A program made the position numbers and the translations under genes. Under the pieces are notes generated by a model that had not been told where the DNA came from, ran no database searches, and saw nothing but the letters and a program-made list of their open reading frames with translations. A stretch of 20,000 nt of DNA from an uncultured virus (IMG/VR IMGVR_UViG_3300042483_000521) (taxonomy: Duplodnaviria; Heunggongvirae; Uroviricota; Caudoviricetes): the IMG/VR virus record IMGVR_UViG_3300042483_000521. The stretch is one strand, 5' to 3'. Positions within the stretch are counted from its first letter, which is position 1. Each line of letters begins with the position of its first letter. Shown here in pieces: positions 5,443 to 19,818 of the stretch.

Positions 5443-6174
5443 TTATTCATTTGTTTGTATTCTGAACTGGGCACTTTGTACCGCAGATGCATTCTCTGTA
5501 TACATTGCTAAGTTCTGGACAGTTAAATCTACTAACTCGTCTTCCAGATAAGCTTCAAGTTCACAATCAACGTCTGTTGAGGGTTGACCATCAAACCTGA
5601 TGTAGCCTGTCTTATCAATGTAGATTGGGTATCTCATGTACGAAATGTATATCGCAGTTGGAGTGAACGTTCCGTCAGTGAATATACTAATTTCATCTGA
5701 AGAGATAAAATTAAATGTTTCTTGATATTCAAAGGATGGCTTGTAGTGAACGTTGTTCAATAAGAACTGCAAATCACCATGTTTTGCCAAATCTTTATTT
5801 ATCCAGATTTGTCGATCCTTACATACACCCTTGTCAGCTAAAACATAACTGTCAATGTAGAACATATATTTTGGATCAAGTAAATCAATATCAGCTGCCC
5901 ACTGATTTAGTGTTTGGTTTTTGAGATGAAGATTTAACACGCCAGCATTGTAATTAATTACAAGCTTCTGTAAGTCTTCATAACGCTTTTTGAAAGCGTC
6001 TAGTCCCATTCCACTAACAACACTAAATCCATCAACCTTCTGTTTGATAAGCTTAATCTGCGCTTCGTTAAGTGCAAGTATTTTATCTTCTAGTTGAATC
6101 TGCTGATGCTCATTAGTTGATAGTTTATTTAGTTTTTGATCAATCTTATATAATAAACTATCTACAGGTATCAT
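5443..6174 (-). CDS. crAss-like tail ring (head-tail connector) protein
   Basis: 243 aa; LNEAQ, YMRYP and DCELEAYLEDELVDLTV motifs resemble crAss ring proteins; ATGA overlap with the upstream gene. Confidence 0.7.
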   Translation of the reverse strand: MIPVDSLLYKIDQKLNKLSTNEHQQIQLEDKILALNEAQIKLIKQKVDGFSVVSGMGLDAFKKRYEDLQKLVINYNAGVLNLHLKNQTLNQWAADIDLLDPKYMFYIDSYVLADKGVCKDRQIWINKDLAKHGDLQFLLNNVHYKPSFEYQETFNFISSDEISIFTDGTFTPTAIYISYMRYPIYIDKTGYIRFDGQPSTDVDCELEAYLEDELVDLTVQNLAMYTENASAVQSAQFRIQTNE

Positions 6175-7301: not shown

Positions 7302-8855
7302 TTAGAACTGTGGAATTTCTTCGATAAGAACAGTTCGTGACAAATCTTCGATGAATACATCGCAACGATCTTGCATCCAGATTTCATAGCCTGGGAATTT
7401 GTTGGCAGAAGACATACCCTGAGACTTAGCAAAGCCTAAGTGGTGTCTACGTCCATCAATATAACCCCAAGTCATAGAAGGAGCACCCTTCATACGTACT
7501 TCACGAATGTTGTTGACCATAGAGCCATCAGACATTGGAGATACGTCAAATACCATGAACACAGGAGTGGACTTCTTGTTCTGACCAAATTCCAAGTTGG
7601 ACTGAGGAAGATCAAGTTCTTTCAAGTGGATAAGTTCAACACGACCAGTCTCACGAGTTACCATTGCATCGAATGCAAAGTTGTAAGTGATGTGCTGTCC
7701 TTCTCCTTGCATGTAACGGTTACCGCTATCTGCCATGAAAGTAAGACCAGAATTCAAAGCATCTGCTTTAAGAGCCTGCTGGAACACATCGAAGCCAGCT
7801 TCGTTAGTGTACATTTTAACTCTTCTATCCTTAACATCCACACGTCTGTAGAACAAGTCTCCAAATACGGAACGGATAAGGTTTGCGGAGAATTCTCCAC
7901 GATTGTATTGTACCAAGTTACCATTGTTACGCATTCTGTGGTAAACACCAGCAGACACACGCTTCAATTCTTGCTTAGATCCATTAGTTTTTACAGTGCC
8001 TGGCTTAGACCAGATCATTCGCTTCACCTTAAGTTCAAGCATTGCTTTTCTCAACATGAATTCTACGAATGGCTCCCACTTAACATCGTTACGGGTTAGA
8101 GGAAGTTGGTTTCTACGCTGAGGAGCATATACCAAGATGTCAAGAGCTTTTCCAGAAGCATCCACCATCATTTTGTCATCAGCCCATGCAGTAACTTGGT
8201 GCTCAAAACCATATCCAGAACCAAGAGATTCGAACATAGTGATTTTCTCACCAAGTCTTGGCAAACCAAGAAGATCCTGATCAAATTCACCAATTGCAGC
8301 ATCAACCAATTCTAGTTCGATACCAATTTGCAAGAAAGTAGAGCTTACAAAGTCCACGATTGGGTTATCAGAAACCAATGTGAAAGTGTAAAGGAAACCT
8401 GCATTCCAAGGAACTGGATCTTTTACAGCATACCATCTTGGACCATACTGACGAGAACCTACAGAAACGATAGCGTTCTTAGAGAATTCGTTAGTGTCCA
8501 ATACCACCTGAAATTCCTGACCATCAATACCTGGCTTGCTCAACTCAGCAGTAGAGCTAGGGATGTCAATGATTTTAGGGAATTTGTAAGGAACTTGAAC
8601 TTCCCACTTCCAAGAATCGCTGTTGTTGTCGATGTAATAAGGAGTGGACTTGTTGATCATATCAAGGAAGTCATTGCTATACAATGAGCTCTGAGTGTAC
8701 AAGGAGATAATCTTCTTGTCATAGTCAGCTGGCTCAGTAGAGTGGAATGACTCCAAGTGATTTGAATCAGTTAGCTTTCCTACGGCACGTTTGTCCATTG
8801 ACGCAACACGGGCATAGGTAAAGCCAGTTAAACCTGGGATTGTTTGAATTGCCAT
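7302..8855 (-). CDS. major capsid protein (crAss-like, HK97 fold)
   Basis: 517 aa, follows portal and scaffold-like genes, followed by a strong terminator; crAss-type motifs WKWEV, MYTNEAGF and a C-terminal CDVFIED. Confidence 0.88.
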   Translation of the reverse strand: MAIQTIPGLTGFTYARVASMDKRAVGKLTDSNHLESFHSTEPADYDKKIISLYTQSSLYSNDFLDMINKSTPYYIDNNSDSWKWEVQVPYKFPKIIDIPSSTAELSKPGIDGQEFQVVLDTNEFSKNAIVSVGSRQYGPRWYAVKDPVPWNAGFLYTFTLVSDNPIVDFVSSTFLQIGIELELVDAAIGEFDQDLLGLPRLGEKITMFESLGSGYGFEHQVTAWADDKMMVDASGKALDILVYAPQRRNQLPLTRNDVKWEPFVEFMLRKAMLELKVKRMIWSKPGTVKTNGSKQELKRVSAGVYHRMRNNGNLVQYNRGEFSANLIRSVFGDLFYRRVDVKDRRVKMYTNEAGFDVFQQALKADALNSGLTFMADSGNRYMQGEGQHITYNFAFDAMVTRETGRVELIHLKELDLPQSNLEFGQNKKSTPVFMVFDVSPMSDGSMVNNIREVRMKGAPSMTWGYIDGRRHHLGFAKSQGMSSANKFPGYEIWMQDRCDVFIEDLSRTVLIEEIPQF

Positions 8856-10191: not shown

Positions 10192-10258
10192 TAAGGAATA
10201 ATCAAAATTGTTGTTTTTTTGACACGTATAGCATTAATATTAATTTTTCCATATTTTA

Positions 10259-15913: not shown

Positions 15914-16253
15914 TTATCTTATTCATTAATACTTTACGCCTCAACAACATGTAATCAATATCATCATTCCACTTCTCCGTTTTAACATCACTGTCAGAGC
16001 TGGAAATCATGTCTCTCAAACTTCTAATCTTCTCATCTAGAACATCAAGTCTCTTCTGTGCAGCTCTATCATTCCACTTCAATGTGCCAAACCCAGAAAT
16101 CTCCACTGTCTTATTCTTCTGTAAAGCAGCTAATGCACTATCAAACTGATGTCGTATTATTTGATCAACAATCTTCACATCCATCTCTAGGGACTCAGCA
16201 AGCTTCCTAACAAACCAATCCCTATGGGACATTGAATTAGGCTTTTCCTTCAT
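15840..16253 (-). CDS. HU/IHF-like DNA-binding protein
   Basis: Helix-helix followed by VEISGFGTL, the HU/IHF signature; IHF-like genes occur upstream of terminase in crAss-like phages. Confidence 0.75.
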   Translation of the reverse strand: MKEKPNSMSHRDWFVRKLAESLEMDVKIVDQIIRHQFDSALAALQKNKTVEISGFGTLKWNDRAAQKRLDVLDEKIRSLRDMISSSDSDVKTEKWNDDIDYMLLRRKVLMNKINELNTDLRRLEKQSTSRRKPKGTD

Positions 16254-16584
16254 GCAAAATCTTTATCTCTAATGTAATGTCACTGGAGAAATCTAGGGAA
16301 ATTAAAGGATTGACAACAATCTTTCCATCTTTCTTAAGAAGAAGGTTACGCTTCTTCAGCTTCGACACCATATTATTCACCGTTGCTCCTGTTGTACTGT
16401 ACGTAGTACAGAATTTCTCCCTATTACTAGGAACAGAAATACTTCCAGAAACAGCAATGAAAGACATCAACTGAACTTCCCTCTCTGTAAGCATTAAATC
16501 GTTCAATGCAGAAAGAACAGAATAGTATCTGTACGACACATCCGTGTCATTCTGTAATCCCTTCTTTAATCGTTGTACAATCAT
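16237..16584 (-). CDS. winged-helix DNA-binding protein (start moved to ATG 16584)
   Basis: LTEREVQLM...TVNNMVSKLKKRNLL..KDGKIVVNP is a wHTH pattern; the ORF-track TTG start lies inside the promoter -7 box. Confidence 0.7.
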   Translation of the reverse strand: MIVQRLKKGLQNDTDVSYRYYSVLSALNDLMLTEREVQLMSFIAVSGSISVPSNREKFCTTYSTTGATVNNMVSKLKKRNLLLKKDGKIVVNPLISLDFSSDITLEIKILHEGKA

Positions 16585-16602
16585 TTCCTTATTGGTTTCT
16601 AA

Positions 16603-16635
16603 CAAATATAAAACATCCTCCGTGAAAATAACAAA
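16603..16635 (-). promoter_or_regulatory. Bacteroidota primary-sigma promoter heading the late operon
   Basis: TTTG (16635-16632)-N21-TATATTTG (16610-16603), an exact consensus match. Confidence 0.75.
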
Positions 16636-16828
16636 TTTTATTATTTCTTGTTTTTGTAAACCGCCCCACCCACAAGAGGAATTGTAAAGAAGCCCCCCAC
16701 CAAAATTTTCAAAATTTGGAAAAGTGTTGTGTCAATGGGGGAGGAGCTTACATCTAATTAATTCCCCTCAGGGGATTTGGGTAGTCGAGTGACTCCCCCA
16801 GTTTGTTAAACACATAAACAAAAAACAC

Positions 16829-17242
16829 ATGAGTAAGATTGTAGAAATGATCATTGAAGGTGAGGACATTGATAGAGTTCAGTTCGTTCGCACTAGACAG
16901 TACAAGAGCACCAAAGAGGGCTTTGCAGGAGAATCTTTCGAGGTCTACAAGGTTAAAGGCATCACCTTTAGAGTACCTAGCAAAGATGCTTTTAACAAAG
17001 ACTTTGAGGGTAGAGCCAAAGTAGTTCGAAAGATCTATTTGATTGAACGCAAAGGCGTTGAATTGAAAGCACAGGACGAAAACGGTGATGCGATCGTCAA
17101 GGATCTTTGGGACTTCGATGGCTATAGCACCAACGATAGTTTTCTTGCAAACAAGAAGGTTGAAGGCTTAGCAAAGCGTTACTCTGAAGGGAACTTCACA
17201 GACACTGCTAACATCGTTGAACTAGAAGAGGCACTAGGTTAA
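16829..17242 (+). CDS. hypothetical protein, first gene of the plus-strand (early) cluster
   Basis: 137 aa with an A-rich leader AAACAAAAAACAC-ATG. Confidence 0.85.
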   Translation: MSKIVEMIIEGEDIDRVQFVRTRQYKSTKEGFAGESFEVYKVKGITFRVPSKDAFNKDFEGRAKVVRKIYLIERKGVELKAQDENGDAIVKDLWDFDGYSTNDSFLANKKVEGLAKRYSEGNFTDTANIVELEEALG

Positions 17243-17520
17243 CACGGAAGGGGCTTAGGCCCTTTCCTCGTGTATAGGCACTATTACACATCCAATGCAT
17301 CTGAGCAAATCAGACGTATATGATACATGTTGCGTTGTATTATATATGGTGTGAGGATGTGTAGTTGCTATTCTCTAGGTAAAATGCAATGGTTTTATGG
17401 TAATGTACAATTTAATAAACTTTTCTCGAGGGAATTGTAAACTTCATGTTGTACTTTACTAATAAATTGTTGTGAGAATAAGAGTAGGAGTGACACCACA
17501 CACGTAATAATGGGGTGTTT
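17242..17520 (+). ncRNA. candidate multi-domain structured RNA
   Basis: ~320-nt gap without a plausible ORF, densely filled with stems containing G-U pairs on the plus strand. Confidence 0.5.
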
Positions 17521-17565
17521 TCGTAAGTGTTGATTTCAGTATTCATTATTTTATATAGCATTAAC

Positions 17566-17793
17566 ATGTATACCATCATTAATAAAACAAAAAGAAACAT
17601 CATTAAGTGTGAAGGTGATTGGCCTGATCTTGATGAAGCATTAAATGCAGGAGATAAGATAATTGTAATCAGTCTTTATTCTAACACTATTAAAGTTCCA
17701 TATTATACAGAACATAATGGTATTGTAGAATGGAGATGGGATAATTATCCTTTTGATCCTAATTGTTTTAACATTAAATCCAATCAGGTATGA
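17566..17793 (+). CDS. hypothetical protein (start at ATG 17566)
   Basis: 75 aa MYTIINKTKRNIIKCEGDWP... Confidence 0.75.
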   Translation: MYTIINKTKRNIIKCEGDWPDLDEALNAGDKIIVISLYSNTIKVPYYTEHNGIVEWRWDNYPFDPNCFNIKSNQV

Positions 17794-17948
17794 CAGTATT
17801 CATTGTATTCATTGCAGAGATTCCTTCTATACATAAGAAAATAGAGATTAGGAATGATGAGTTGTATGCAGATGATAGACTTATTTGTGATGCTATGTAT
17901 GTACAAAAAATCATCATTACAACAACAGACAAGATTGAGAGCCTGTAA
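17790..17948 (+). CDS. 52-aa hypothetical protein, absent from ORF track
   Basis: MTVFIVFIAEIPSIHKKIEIRNDELYADDRLICDAMYVQKIIITTTDKIESL; ATGA overlap with the previous gene. Confidence 0.7.
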   Translation: MTVFIVFIAEIPSIHKKIEIRNDELYADDRLICDAMYVQKIIITTTDKIESL

Positions 17949-17986
17949 CAGGACTCTTTTGTTTTTAACATTAAACCAATAGAAAT

Positions 17987-18268
17987 ATGAAAGTATATTT
18001 AGTTTATTACGATAATGGACATGCTTATGAAGATCATGACGTTAGCGTTGTTAGAATCTTTCTTAGTGAGGATAGTGCATCTAAGTGTGTCATTGATAGA
18101 AACAACAACAGAGAGTTTGTTCCTTCTATGACTAAACATGAATATTATTCTCAAGATCCAGAAGAGATTGGTCAATCTTATGAAGATTGGTTAAAGTATG
18201 CAAAGTCATCATGGGATTTTTACAATTGTGGTAGATATTTCCATGTAGAGGCAGAAGTATTTGAATAA
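17987..18268 (+). CDS. hypothetical phage protein
   Basis: 93 aa; MKVYLVYYDNG..YED....V.IF.SE..A type N-terminus common in small phage ORFs. Confidence 0.8.
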   Translation: MKVYLVYYDNGHAYEDHDVSVVRIFLSEDSASKCVIDRNNNREFVPSMTKHEYYSQDPEEIGQSYEDWLKYAKSSWDFYNCGRYFHVEAEVFE

Positions 18269-18339
18269 TTGTATGTGGCCACGTAGTGCCTTAATCCATC
18301 CGTGATGCATGTGAAAGCATGTAGGATGGACATACAATT
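18267..18339 (+). ncRNA. three-way-junction RNA directly upstream of the ribozyme
   Basis: Perfect 10-bp AATTGTATGT/ACATACAATT stem; TCCATCC/GGATGGA stem capped by TGCATGT-GAAA-GCATGTA. Confidence 0.55.
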
Positions 18340-18490
18340 TCAATGCACCACAACTCATTTCCCAAGGATGAGCAGTTGTAATATCCATATGGGTCAAAGC
18401 ACTTGTGTACAGAGTGTGACGTAACTAAGGATGGTCTATGTTCATTACATAGTTCCTGAATGTATTACAACTGAGTGCAGAGGGATTTGG
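18335..18490 (+). ncRNA. twister-like self-cleaving ribozyme (type P1) with an extended P5
   Basis: C^AA-TGCA-CC ... CTCAT-TTCCCAAGG-ATGAG - P5 - TGCA-GA-GGG. P2, P4 and pseudoknots T1 (CCC/GGG) and T2 (CC/GG) occur in twister order. Confidence 0.7.
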
Positions 18491-18561
18491 AGGGATATAT
18501 GCTCCCAAGCAGGTGCAAAGCCTGCATTTATTTATTTATTCATTTAAACCCACACAACAAC

Positions 18562-18741
18562 ATGTTAAAATCAATTCTAACTTTCTTGTTTCCTAAGACT
18601 ATTGCTTCTATAAAGAAGGATGCTCTTGATAAGTATTTTGCTGATGATATGCAGCAACAATGGGATGAGATCAATGAGTATGAAGAAAGAATGCATCTTG
18701 AAAACGAGCAATTGGATCAATCTTACATGCATGACTTATGA
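18562..18741 (+). CDS. hypothetical protein (start at ATG 18562)
   Basis: 59 aa MLKSILTFLFPKTIASIKK... with an A/C-rich leader. Confidence 0.7.
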   Translation: MLKSILTFLFPKTIASIKKDALDKYFADDMQQQWDEINEYEERMHLENEQLDQSYMHDL

Positions 18742-18860
18742 TCACATTATGTATTATGCCCAATTTCAAGGGCACAAGCACTGAGACTATTAAAGCATTT
18801 GTTACATGTCTCGTATTAGATAGTATTTATTGTTTACCAATTTTAATCAATTATTTATGA
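18738..18860 (+). CDS. 40-aa hydrophobic peptide, absent from ORF track
   Basis: MITLCIMPNFKGTSTETIKAFVTCLVLDSIYCLPILINYL; ATGA overlaps at both ends. Confidence 0.6.
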   Translation: MITLCIMPNFKGTSTETIKAFVTCLVLDSIYCLPILINYL

Positions 18861-19162
18861 ACACACTAAAATTAGTTAGAGCTATAGCTATGGGAACAGC
18901 TGTGCTTGCAGGAGTCTTATCTATTTGCATTCTTGTATTTACAGGATCAGCAATTGATATGGGTGTAACAGATGAGCAGTTTCTCATCACTGTTATTGTA
19001 TTCTTCATTTCCACATTGTATTGGTCAGCTGTTGATGCGATTATTAGAAGAGATGAGGCTTATACAGAAGCTGTAAAGAAGATTCATCAGACAACATTTA
19101 ATCAAGCTGTTACATTGATGATCATTTGTATTCTTGGAACACTTTCTCTGGTATTCTTATGA
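18857..19162 (+). CDS. membrane protein, about three TM helices
   Basis: 101 aa from ATG 18857 with three hydrophobic segments. Confidence 0.75.
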   Translation: MNTLKLVRAIAMGTAVLAGVLSICILVFTGSAIDMGVTDEQFLITVIVFFISTLYWSAVDAIIRRDEAYTEAVKKIHQTTFNQAVTLMIICILGTLSLVFL

Positions 19163-19374
19163 AGTATGCCAGAGAGTGTTCTATTACAGGTGAAGGAATG
19201 AATCAAGGATGGGTTGGAGATGATGGATGTGTCTATTTCAAATATGAGAAAGATGCATTACAATGGTGCATAAGCAGAGGATATAGAGATATTGACGATG
19301 CTTATGTTGATGATGTAATTTATTACACAGAATGGGAAGATTTTGAACAAGACGCTGAAGATTATGATAATTGA
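19159..19374 (+). CDS. hypothetical acidic protein
   Basis: 71 aa MKYARECSITGEGMNQGW...YYTEWED; ATGA overlap. Confidence 0.8.
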   Translation: MKYARECSITGEGMNQGWVGDDGCVYFKYEKDALQWCISRGYRDIDDAYVDDVIYYTEWEDFEQDAEDYDN

Positions 19375-19573
19375 AAGACAAAGTATTGTATCTGGTAAAG
19401 TTTATCAGATGGAATTGGATATTACTCAACAACAGTTGAATGATTTCACTAATGGTAGACTTGGATTGATTCAAGAGGCATTTCCTCATTTATCTATTGA
19501 TGAACGTGAGTTCATTATATCTGGTATTCATCCAATAGAATGGAGAGAGTTATTTGGAGAATTAGAGGATTAA
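19364..19573 (+). CDS. hypothetical phage protein
   Basis: 69 aa with LIQEAFPHLSIDEREFIISGIHPIEW, a motif typical of a widespread small phage protein. Confidence 0.8.
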   Translation: MIIERQSIVSGKVYQMELDITQQQLNDFTNGRLGLIQEAFPHLSIDEREFIISGIHPIEWRELFGELED

Positions 19574-19588
19574 TTTAATCAAACGCAC

Positions 19589-19717
19589 ATGAAAAAATTA
19601 ACTAAAAGAGAATTCAGCTATGCAATAGTATTCTATAGCATGCTAAGCTTGTTAATCTGCGCACTTATTGTGTGGTGGGTTGAATTTATTAAGCAATATC
19701 CGCAAATCATATTCTAA
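19589..19717 (+). CDS. 42-aa single-pass membrane peptide, absent from ORF track
   Basis: MKKLTKREFSYAIVFYSMLSLLICALIVWWVEFIKQYPQIIF. Confidence 0.65.
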   Translation: MKKLTKREFSYAIVFYSMLSLLICALIVWWVEFIKQYPQIIF

Positions 19718-19730
19718 TGTGATTTGTGCG

Positions 19731-19758
19731 TCTGCTGAGCATCAGAATAAACTGCTCA
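19731..19758 (+). ncRNA. candidate H-type pseudoknot
   Basis: TCTG/CAGA stem whose loop TGAGCA pairs with TGCTCA after an ATAAAC linker. Confidence 0.45.
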
Positions 19759-19818
19759 ATTATATAGCATTAAGTAAAAATCAAAGCAAATAAACAAACA
19801 ATTAAAGCAAAAACGCAC

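Follow-up and report, generated by a model that had tools for sequence, protein, structure and literature searches.

What RNA, if any, do the non-coding gaps in the early region of an uncultured crAss-like phage encode, and does that RNA cut the transcript that crosses them? The region lies within a 20,000-nucleotide (nt) stretch of the virus IMGVR_UViG_3300042483_000521, referred to here as the window. An earlier reading, made from the sequence without database searches (the sequence-only reading), had described three non-coding gaps of about 320, 290 and 100 nt, separated by small open reading frames (ORFs), three of them hydrophobic, with a ribozyme-like core in one gap. It proposed that a polycistronic early transcript is processed by self-cleavage and structure into separately stabilised RNAs. 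The gaps measure 323 nt (17243–17565), 293 nt (18269–18561) and 101 nt (19718–19818), and the ORFs between them number nine, of 40–101 amino acids (aa), with ATGA overlaps. The core is indeed present, in gap 2, and resembles a twister ribozyme. The region is best described as one probable cutting site within an accessory, recombining slot, rather than a transcript cut throughout.

The window is that of a crAss-like (Crassvirales-like) phage, with capsid, portal and terminase genes and opposed late and replication arms. Its leftward arm contains a match to Crass_capsid (PF23898) at 1e-25 together with PHROG portal and terminase matches, and the closest terminase matches are crAss-like phages with identity of at most 40%. 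The rightward arm of a complete relative, G003, continues into replication-type genes, and the equivalent arm of phage phi14:2 is early (bioRxiv 2020.03.07.982082); the label "early" for the rightward arm of the window is taken from these two arrangements.

All three gaps had been said to fold extensively. This holds for gap 1 (z score of −5.2, with 0 of 100 shuffles equally good) and gap 2 (z of −2.7, 2 of 200 shuffles), and fails for gap 3, which has no strong fold (z of −0.5, 62 of 200 shuffles). As 120-nt windows within nearby ORFs also reach z scores of −3 to −5.6, folding energy by itself is weak evidence here, and the case therefore rests on covariation and comparison. The late arm of the window also has gaps, of 133, 162 and 177 nt.

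A probable twister-like ribozyme in gap 2

Gap 2 consists of three modules: a three-way junction (D), a twister-like ribozyme and a double hairpin (E). The second module (18333..18489, plus strand, as are all its parts) was assigned as a type-P1 twister-like ribozyme by comparison with env22 and a review consensus, with the cut predicted between C18341 and A18342. Its core reads C, the predicted cut, AA UGCA CC ACAA CUCAU UUCCCAAGG AUGAG, the P5 arm, and then AG UGCA GAGGG. Helix P2 has 4 base pairs (18344-47/18476-79), and P4 is a predicted stem (18354-58/18368-72). The two predicted pseudoknots are T1 (18361-63/18482-84) and T2 (18348-49/18366-67), the predicted catalytic residue is G18480, and the P5 arm (18373-18473) carries an insert of about 80 nt. 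The element shares with type-P1 twisters the order P1, cut, AA, P2 (4 base pairs), T2, P4, L4 (U, T1, AA, T2), P5, P2, GA, T1, P1, with three predicted pairs in T1. Three features that the search pattern did not fix agree between this family and env22 (PMC6101554), namely a pair of adenosines following the cut, a P2 of 4 bp and a GA-GGG strand.

The family was collected with a 22-letter pattern that covered the loop and the first part of P5 and matched at least 120 viral stretches. Over those stretches, 16 earlier loci and the window, the pattern gave at least 135 matches, at least 113 of them distinct. The upstream AA-P2-T2 strand and the P4 partner, left unfixed by the pattern, are present in nearly all matches; L078 is a chance match. 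A looser parser, which demanded the loop, the GAGG strand and four of five P4 pairs, yielded at least 128 copies (at least 109 distinct) from at least 115 sources. Among the matches listed, the base preceding the cut is U in 102 of the 109 distinct copies and C in five, T2 is CC/GG in 97 and UC/GG in 10, and there are three compensated P2 variants and 17 P4 variants. P1 pairing in these copies stands at 2.26, compared with 1.13 ± 0.10 in 500 partner shuffles.

Covariation was assessed on 32 copies, namely the window copy and 31 of 32 copies with a short P5 (the near-duplicate L130 was left out). Paired cells amount to 92.8%, compared with 83.6% after shuffling. Nineteen of 28 pairs changed on both sides, a count that kinship inflates, that none of 500 shuffles equalled and that collapsed in slid controls. 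Such changes affect all five pairs of P4, two of four in P2 and all four in P1, and P5 also covaries. P2 and P4 are paired in 100% of cells, while the A after the scissile bond and the G-A at the base of P2, which the collection pattern does not fix, are invariant in all 32 copies. The predicted T1 (CCC/GGG) pairs without variation in all 32, its CCC strand being fixed by the pattern.

Several observations weigh against an active twister. The invariance of the loop motif is partly by construction, since the loop was fixed by both the search pattern and the parser, and the pseudoknots lack compensatory support, as T1 is invariant and variation in T2 is confined to one side. In the window copy, the base ahead of the cut is the less common C and P1 has a single contiguous pair, although P1 covaries in the family. 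Two conserved twister features, the GC of T2 and the invariant G-C pair that closes L4, are both replaced, and L4 is longer by one U. The Rfam models recognise no twister in any tested member, including a 68-nt short-P5 copy, nor in the window, where its scan returned no other credible family either. Moreover, the twister is intact in just four of eight close relatives. In published twisters, P1 is dispensable in vitro and the base before the cut is less conserved (PMC5408937).

The departures from known twisters are as follows. T2 is CC/GG or UC/GG here, whereas the consensus is GC/GC (PMC5408937); the L4-closing pair varies among the 32 aligned copies (C-G in 17, A-U in nine, U-A in five, U-G in one); L4 has 9 nt, compared with 8 nt in env22 (PMC6101554); P3 is missing, and the Rfam twister models miss the family. 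Of the annotated twisters, 1% have a P5 (PMC6154101), whereas every copy recovered here has one, with an insert of up to about 200 nt, partly because the search pattern included the start of P5. Judged from its sequence and conservation, the gap-2 element is probably an active twister variant that falls outside strict membership of the class. A hammerhead was considered and rejected: the signs of one in relatives amount to pattern matches, and gap 3 lacks a GAAA strand by inspection.

At three of 20 loci a hatchet ribozyme is found no farther than 1.5 kb from a family member, and at one of 20 other loci a pistol ribozyme is. Such proximity is expected for ribozyme neighbourhoods (PMC6765202) and counts in favour of the twister assignment. 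In distant phages up to three twister copies occur within 3 kb; one locus (L047, 1-1660) combines three twister copies with further hairpins in about 1.65 kb that, by eye, seems to lack coding sequence. A search for cultured carriers of the variant in 50,697 phage records gave no match: a Chryseobacterium phage match falls inside a gene, in a record without a model match, and that in Lbo-JY46 has an E-value of 0.38. Cellular genomes gave 21 pattern matches, with the full fold at just four loci, all on contigs of metagenome-assembled genomes (MAGs). Among sequencing runs, no RNA run was listed as a carrier.

P5 inserts and module D

Among the matches listed, the P5 domain ranges from 26 to 184 nt (a 314-nt parse at L045 was an error), and one MAG copy has 204 nt. 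The 109 inserts fall into 87 clusters, 69 of which are singletons. In seven of the 18 multi-member clusters, the same insert is combined with two or more P4 sequences; a number of these P4s differ by one pair only, and scaffolds that share an insert while differing at three or more pairs are L051 versus L004 and L007, L040 versus L064, and L112 versus L121. Some inserts are 94–98% identical despite different flanks. The inserts fold with a mean z of −0.95 (17 of 94 below −2), compared with −0.33 (4 of 60) for coding controls, and the insert of the window has a z of −0.3. Outside the twister, four of 100 inserts tested were flagged, one of them an edge artefact. The twister insert of L126 includes a stretch like the T-arm of a tRNA, and early positions 660-770 of L015 form a P5-type stem with its own insert, free-standing and without a twister core.

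Module D (18269..18337, plus strand) is an unclassified three-way junction that stops four bases ahead of the predicted cut. It is free-standing in the window and forms the P5 arm of the twister in other phages: it was found in 15 viral stretches, and among 13 distinct contexts it sits inside a twister in five and is free in eight. Nine of its 21 pairs changed on both sides among nine sequences, which represent essentially two lineages. In L081 and L201, D contains a second D-like copy. D has no Rfam family. At an E-value below 0.01, the D model matched only the window, L032, L081, L199 and L201 among 89 sources, so D is one type of insert among many.

The ends of Cas13b repeats suggested a further role for the P5 stem, mimicry of CRISPR repeats, which was rejected: a repeat-sized pattern made from the ends of the P5 stem occurs in 14 of 401 genomes, as one or two isolated matches each and with no arrays, and the control is about equal. 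The Rfam CRISPR families gave no gathering-level match.

Reshuffling of modules among close relatives

Relatives were fetched through the 122-aa gene that adjoins the region. This gave 15 loci, 10 of them with more than 1.5 kb of the early side; two of the 10 duplicate L004, which leaves eight distinct relatives, and L002 among these is incomplete at the early side. Two further modules are portable. Module T (17938..17966, plus strand), a terminator-like hairpin and T-run at the stop of the 52-aa ORF, occurs in four of the eight relatives and at four further twister loci. Module E (18488..18535, plus strand), a pair of short hairpins with an AT-rich run that a terminator scan marks as a possible partial terminator, occurs in five of the eight and at three other phage loci, with no compensatory change at its 10 pairs.

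The sequence-only reading had suggested looking for further cassettes in related phages, and there the modules were found, in reshuffled order. Between the first copy of a repeated motif, TATATAGCATTAA (17552..17564), and E, the window has ORFs-T-ORF-D-twister-E, compared with D-twister-E in L001, T-D-twister in L002, D-twister-twister-E in L004 and T-twister-ORF-D-E in L007, while L010 and L015 have no twister in this interval. The twister is intact in four of the eight relatives, broken in two (L003 is without P4 and L4, and L009 has about 170 nt inserted before the loop) and absent in two. Searches of five whole relative records gave one, one (weak), one, zero and two copies. ORFs vary along with the modules between the motif and E, and genes are thus gained and lost at repeated elements. 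The mosaicism of modules and ORFs is observed directly and would have arisen by recombination.

In the L009 slot (about 8600-8800), the insertion comprises several hairpins and separates the P4 5' strand from the loop, and the upstream homolog of the 75-aa ORF is frameshifted. Farther along the early arm are tRNA-like elements with an enlarged anticodon region, at 4237-4340 of L004 and 5819-5927 (minus strand) of L001.

Proposed mechanism and alternative explanations

On balance, we favour a model in which the region is an accessory slot assembled from small ORFs and portable RNA modules, crossed by an early transcript that is cut by its own twister variant. By analogy with phi14:2, where the long intergenic regions of the early arm are strongly transcribed (bioRxiv 2020.03.07.982082), a rightward early transcript would cross the slot. 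The twister variant, judged by its structure and conservation, would then fold and cut itself between C18341 and A18342. The upstream piece would end just past junction D with a 2',3'-cyclic phosphate, and the downstream piece would start with a 5'-OH within a compact double pseudoknot that displays the P5 insert. This piece may stop at E, as an RNA of about 190 nt, or form the leader of an mRNA that carries the six conserved small ORFs. Cleavage would thus provide a 5' end that is independent of a promoter and probably protected. Hatchet ribozymes cut at their extreme 5' end (PMC6561176), and those near family members (the three loci above) also have long variable loops; a P1-poor twister would effectively cut at its 5' end like a hatchet, in keeping with a function in generating new 5' ends. 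The near-identical halves of the ribozyme and the other modules could also serve as blocks of homology for the exchange of inserts and ORFs between phages. Circularisation of the product by a phage RtcB was rejected, as the enzyme is encoded in none of four near-complete relatives; a host enzyme might still carry it out.

The original proposal of processing by self-cleavage and structure thus survives in part: one probable twister site, folded modules and terminator-like hairpins are present. What did not stand is processing throughout, as the window has one identifiable ribozyme, gap 3 does not form a structured cassette, and the ribozyme is broken or missing in four of eight relatives. Nothing was found in support of the roles suggested for the cassettes (host takeover, anti-defence or superinfection exclusion), and a PADLOC search gave a match for none of 10 ORFs.

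The slot might instead work by transcription signals, with units of terminator and start signal (T, E, the gap-3 hairpin F and TATAGCATTAA) creating separate transcripts and mediating gene shuffling, much as the PeSL cassettes do, and with the twister incidental. T and E are terminator-like hairpins, motif copies 1 and 2 come after a hairpin and ahead of ORFs, the two relatives without a twister still keep the motif and F, and comparable shuffling is known in T4-type phages (PMC2839356). However, there are just three motif copies per genome, the third opposing the late genes if read rightward; no motif follows T or E; and it is left unexplained why a core of catalytic type should be under purifying selection in 109 copies. 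We regard this explanation as unlikely.

A bolder form of the self-cleaving model, which we consider rather unlikely, treats the twister variant as a self-releasing display chassis. Aquatic crAss-like phages would swap structured payloads into the P5 of a fixed catalytic frame, and the stable 5'-OH small RNAs so produced would counter host defences as decoys or regulators. The chassis would be the RNA counterpart of variable anti-defence gene slots, and the idea is suggested by the 87 insert clusters in 109 copies and by nested modules such as D, which in this reading may itself represent an undescribed functional class of RNA.

Alternatively, the ribozyme could be a passenger, selfish or nearly neutral, that recombination spreads into spacers free of genes, with the P5 insert as tolerated filler. 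Consistent with this, the twister is patchy, broken or duplicated among close relatives, and the inserts are hyperdiverse and modestly structured (the mean z of −0.95 and the −0.3 of the window insert). Yet no mobility gene was seen adjoining the twister, the core shows compensatory changes throughout, certain inserts are retained at 94–98% identity across different flanks, and module D covaries independently, all of which make a passenger quite improbable. Slightly less probable still is a twister-derived scaffold that does not cleave and acts as a protein-binding or nuclease-blocking fold: two consensus features are lost, Rfam misses the element and some RNAs near ribozyme-associated genes failed to cleave in tests (PMC6765202), but the residues credited with catalysis, the A after the cut and the G at the P2 base, are kept in nearly all copies though unfixed by the pattern, and U precedes the cut in 102 of 109. 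The self-cut accessory slot thus remains our preferred explanation.

Comparison with known systems

The name RAGATH is used for gene neighbourhoods associated with ribozymes. Neighbourhoods of twister, hammerhead, hatchet and pistol ribozymes with non-cleaving companion motifs have been described in bacteria and phages (PMC6765202). The present loci are similar in that several ribozyme classes and orphan folds lie amid small phage genes, a setting for which the processing of polycistronic messages has been proposed. As ribozymes among phage genes and such processing are already in print (PMC6765202), the region does not represent the undescribed kind of system for which it had been put forward as a candidate. 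It differs in its nested modules (D inside P5, and D inside D), in the exchange of inserts between scaffolds, and in that D, E, F and the gap-1 element have no Rfam family. The literature examined contained nothing specific to this twister family; the main text of PMC10690425 has no mention of ribozyme, twister or crAss.

The PeSL cassettes of T4-type phages are also small repeated elements; they occur in an early region that is hyperplastic, with gain and loss of non-essential genes at the borders (PMC2839356). A PeSL combines a promoter and a terminator (PMC2839356), whereas the most widespread repeat here is a probable ribozyme, and the window has no excess of sigma70 promoters (14, compared with 17.9 expected). 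Long non-coding stretches head the early arm of phi14:2 as well (bioRxiv 2020.03.07.982082). Kinship with these intergenic RNAs was rejected: they resemble the gaps neither in sequence nor by profile, and the whole phi14:2 record has no match to the twister model.

What self-cleaving ribozymes do for the phages that carry them is an open question (PMC6765202). The present family is a large natural series in which the core is fixed, features of the consensus are altered, inserts are exchangeable and relatives have intact, broken or missing copies, and it thereby makes both catalysis and purpose directly testable; the lack of a cultured carrier in the phage collection searched limits work in vivo. 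If the inserts were selected payloads, they would represent a new phage route to make and diversify small RNAs; otherwise, the family would still merit an Rfam entry as a twister subfamily that has not been catalogued.

The gap-1 element, gap-3 hairpin and repeated motif

Gap 1 starts with a GC-rich terminator-like hairpin (17246..17268, plus strand) after the stop codon, in whose place relatives have other hairpins. It is followed by a multi-stem structured RNA of about 280 nt (17283..17564, plus strand) that is restricted to this clade, belongs to no Rfam family and accepts insertions at one hairpin tip. Its core motif was found in 13 viral contigs, every one in this clade, and nhmmer gave no match among 164 other loci. 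Eight of 58 predicted pairs changed on both sides among nine sequences, the structure being predicted from the same alignment, while the minus-strand control gave 23 pairs with two compensatory. Gap 1 is thus a probable orphan RNA or leader, and this modest covariation favours the rightward strand. A conserved leftward peptide was rejected, since stop positions vary between relatives by inspection.

In gap 3, module F (19732..19758, plus strand) is a conserved 27-nt hairpin or H-type pseudoknot, present in 12 contigs, with no covariation at its nine pairs. It is followed by the second copy of the motif (19761..19773), an exact repeat of the first that precedes an A-rich leader; gap 1 and gap 3 both end in TATAGCATTAA. 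A third copy (10227..10237), in the same orientation, is flanked by the portal gene and by the gene next ahead of the capsid gene, and lies about 100 nt before this second flanking gene. G003 has exactly three copies, and L001–L015 together have 31 exact copies of TATAGCATTAA in a single orientation, which represent three orthologous sites and are not independent. Near twisters outside this clade, the motif occurs at about chance frequency by our own estimate. The motif may be a promoter or a site for protein binding: in the leftward direction it looks like an extended −10 box; in the rightward direction it might serve as a start signal for a virion polymerase; and in gap 1 it could also form the closing strand of the terminal stem of the gap-1 RNA. 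The phi14:2 middle promoters (upstream of g070, g075, g108 and g110) have the form TTG...TAnnTTTG, which the motif does not resemble.

Small ORFs and the early-arm setting

Three accessory ORFs (75, 52 and 93 aa; 17566..18268, plus strand) occupy a hypervariable slot and are found in one, none and none of the eight relatives, which have other ORFs or none at this position. The six small ORFs that follow (59, 40, 101, 71, 69 and 42 aa; 18562..19717, plus strand) are conserved, each in five to seven of the eight by tblastn, with one relative incomplete. Those of 40, 101 and 42 aa are the three hydrophobic ones (best 19-residue hydropathy of 1.9–2.5), the remaining six of the nine reaching at most 1.14. 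For the 101-aa protein, 141 of 150 candidates proved to be homologs, and the 69-aa protein matches phrog_20898, of unknown function.

A tRNA and tmRNA scan of the window found none. The rightward (early/replication) arm is headed by a 137-aa ORF (16829..17242, plus strand), which is homologous in four of the eight relatives and gave no family match and no usable Atlas match; its coding sequence folds with z scores of −4 to −5.6 at 16900-17140 on the plus strand. The 122-aa gene on the opposite strand (16237-16605, minus) is 89–97% identical across the 15 loci and has weak matches to winged-helix repressors (PF03965, E-value 0.007; SrlR, E-value 0.009), which makes its product a candidate binder of the three-copy motif. 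Beside it, at 16606-16640 on the minus strand, a stretch conserved in relatives has the shape of a Bacteroidota-type host promoter (TTTG, 21 nt, TATATTTG) directed toward the late arm. The nearest terminase in the phage collection (40%; L219, PP438436.1) was deposited with a cyanobacterial host, which is unusual for a crAss-like terminase.

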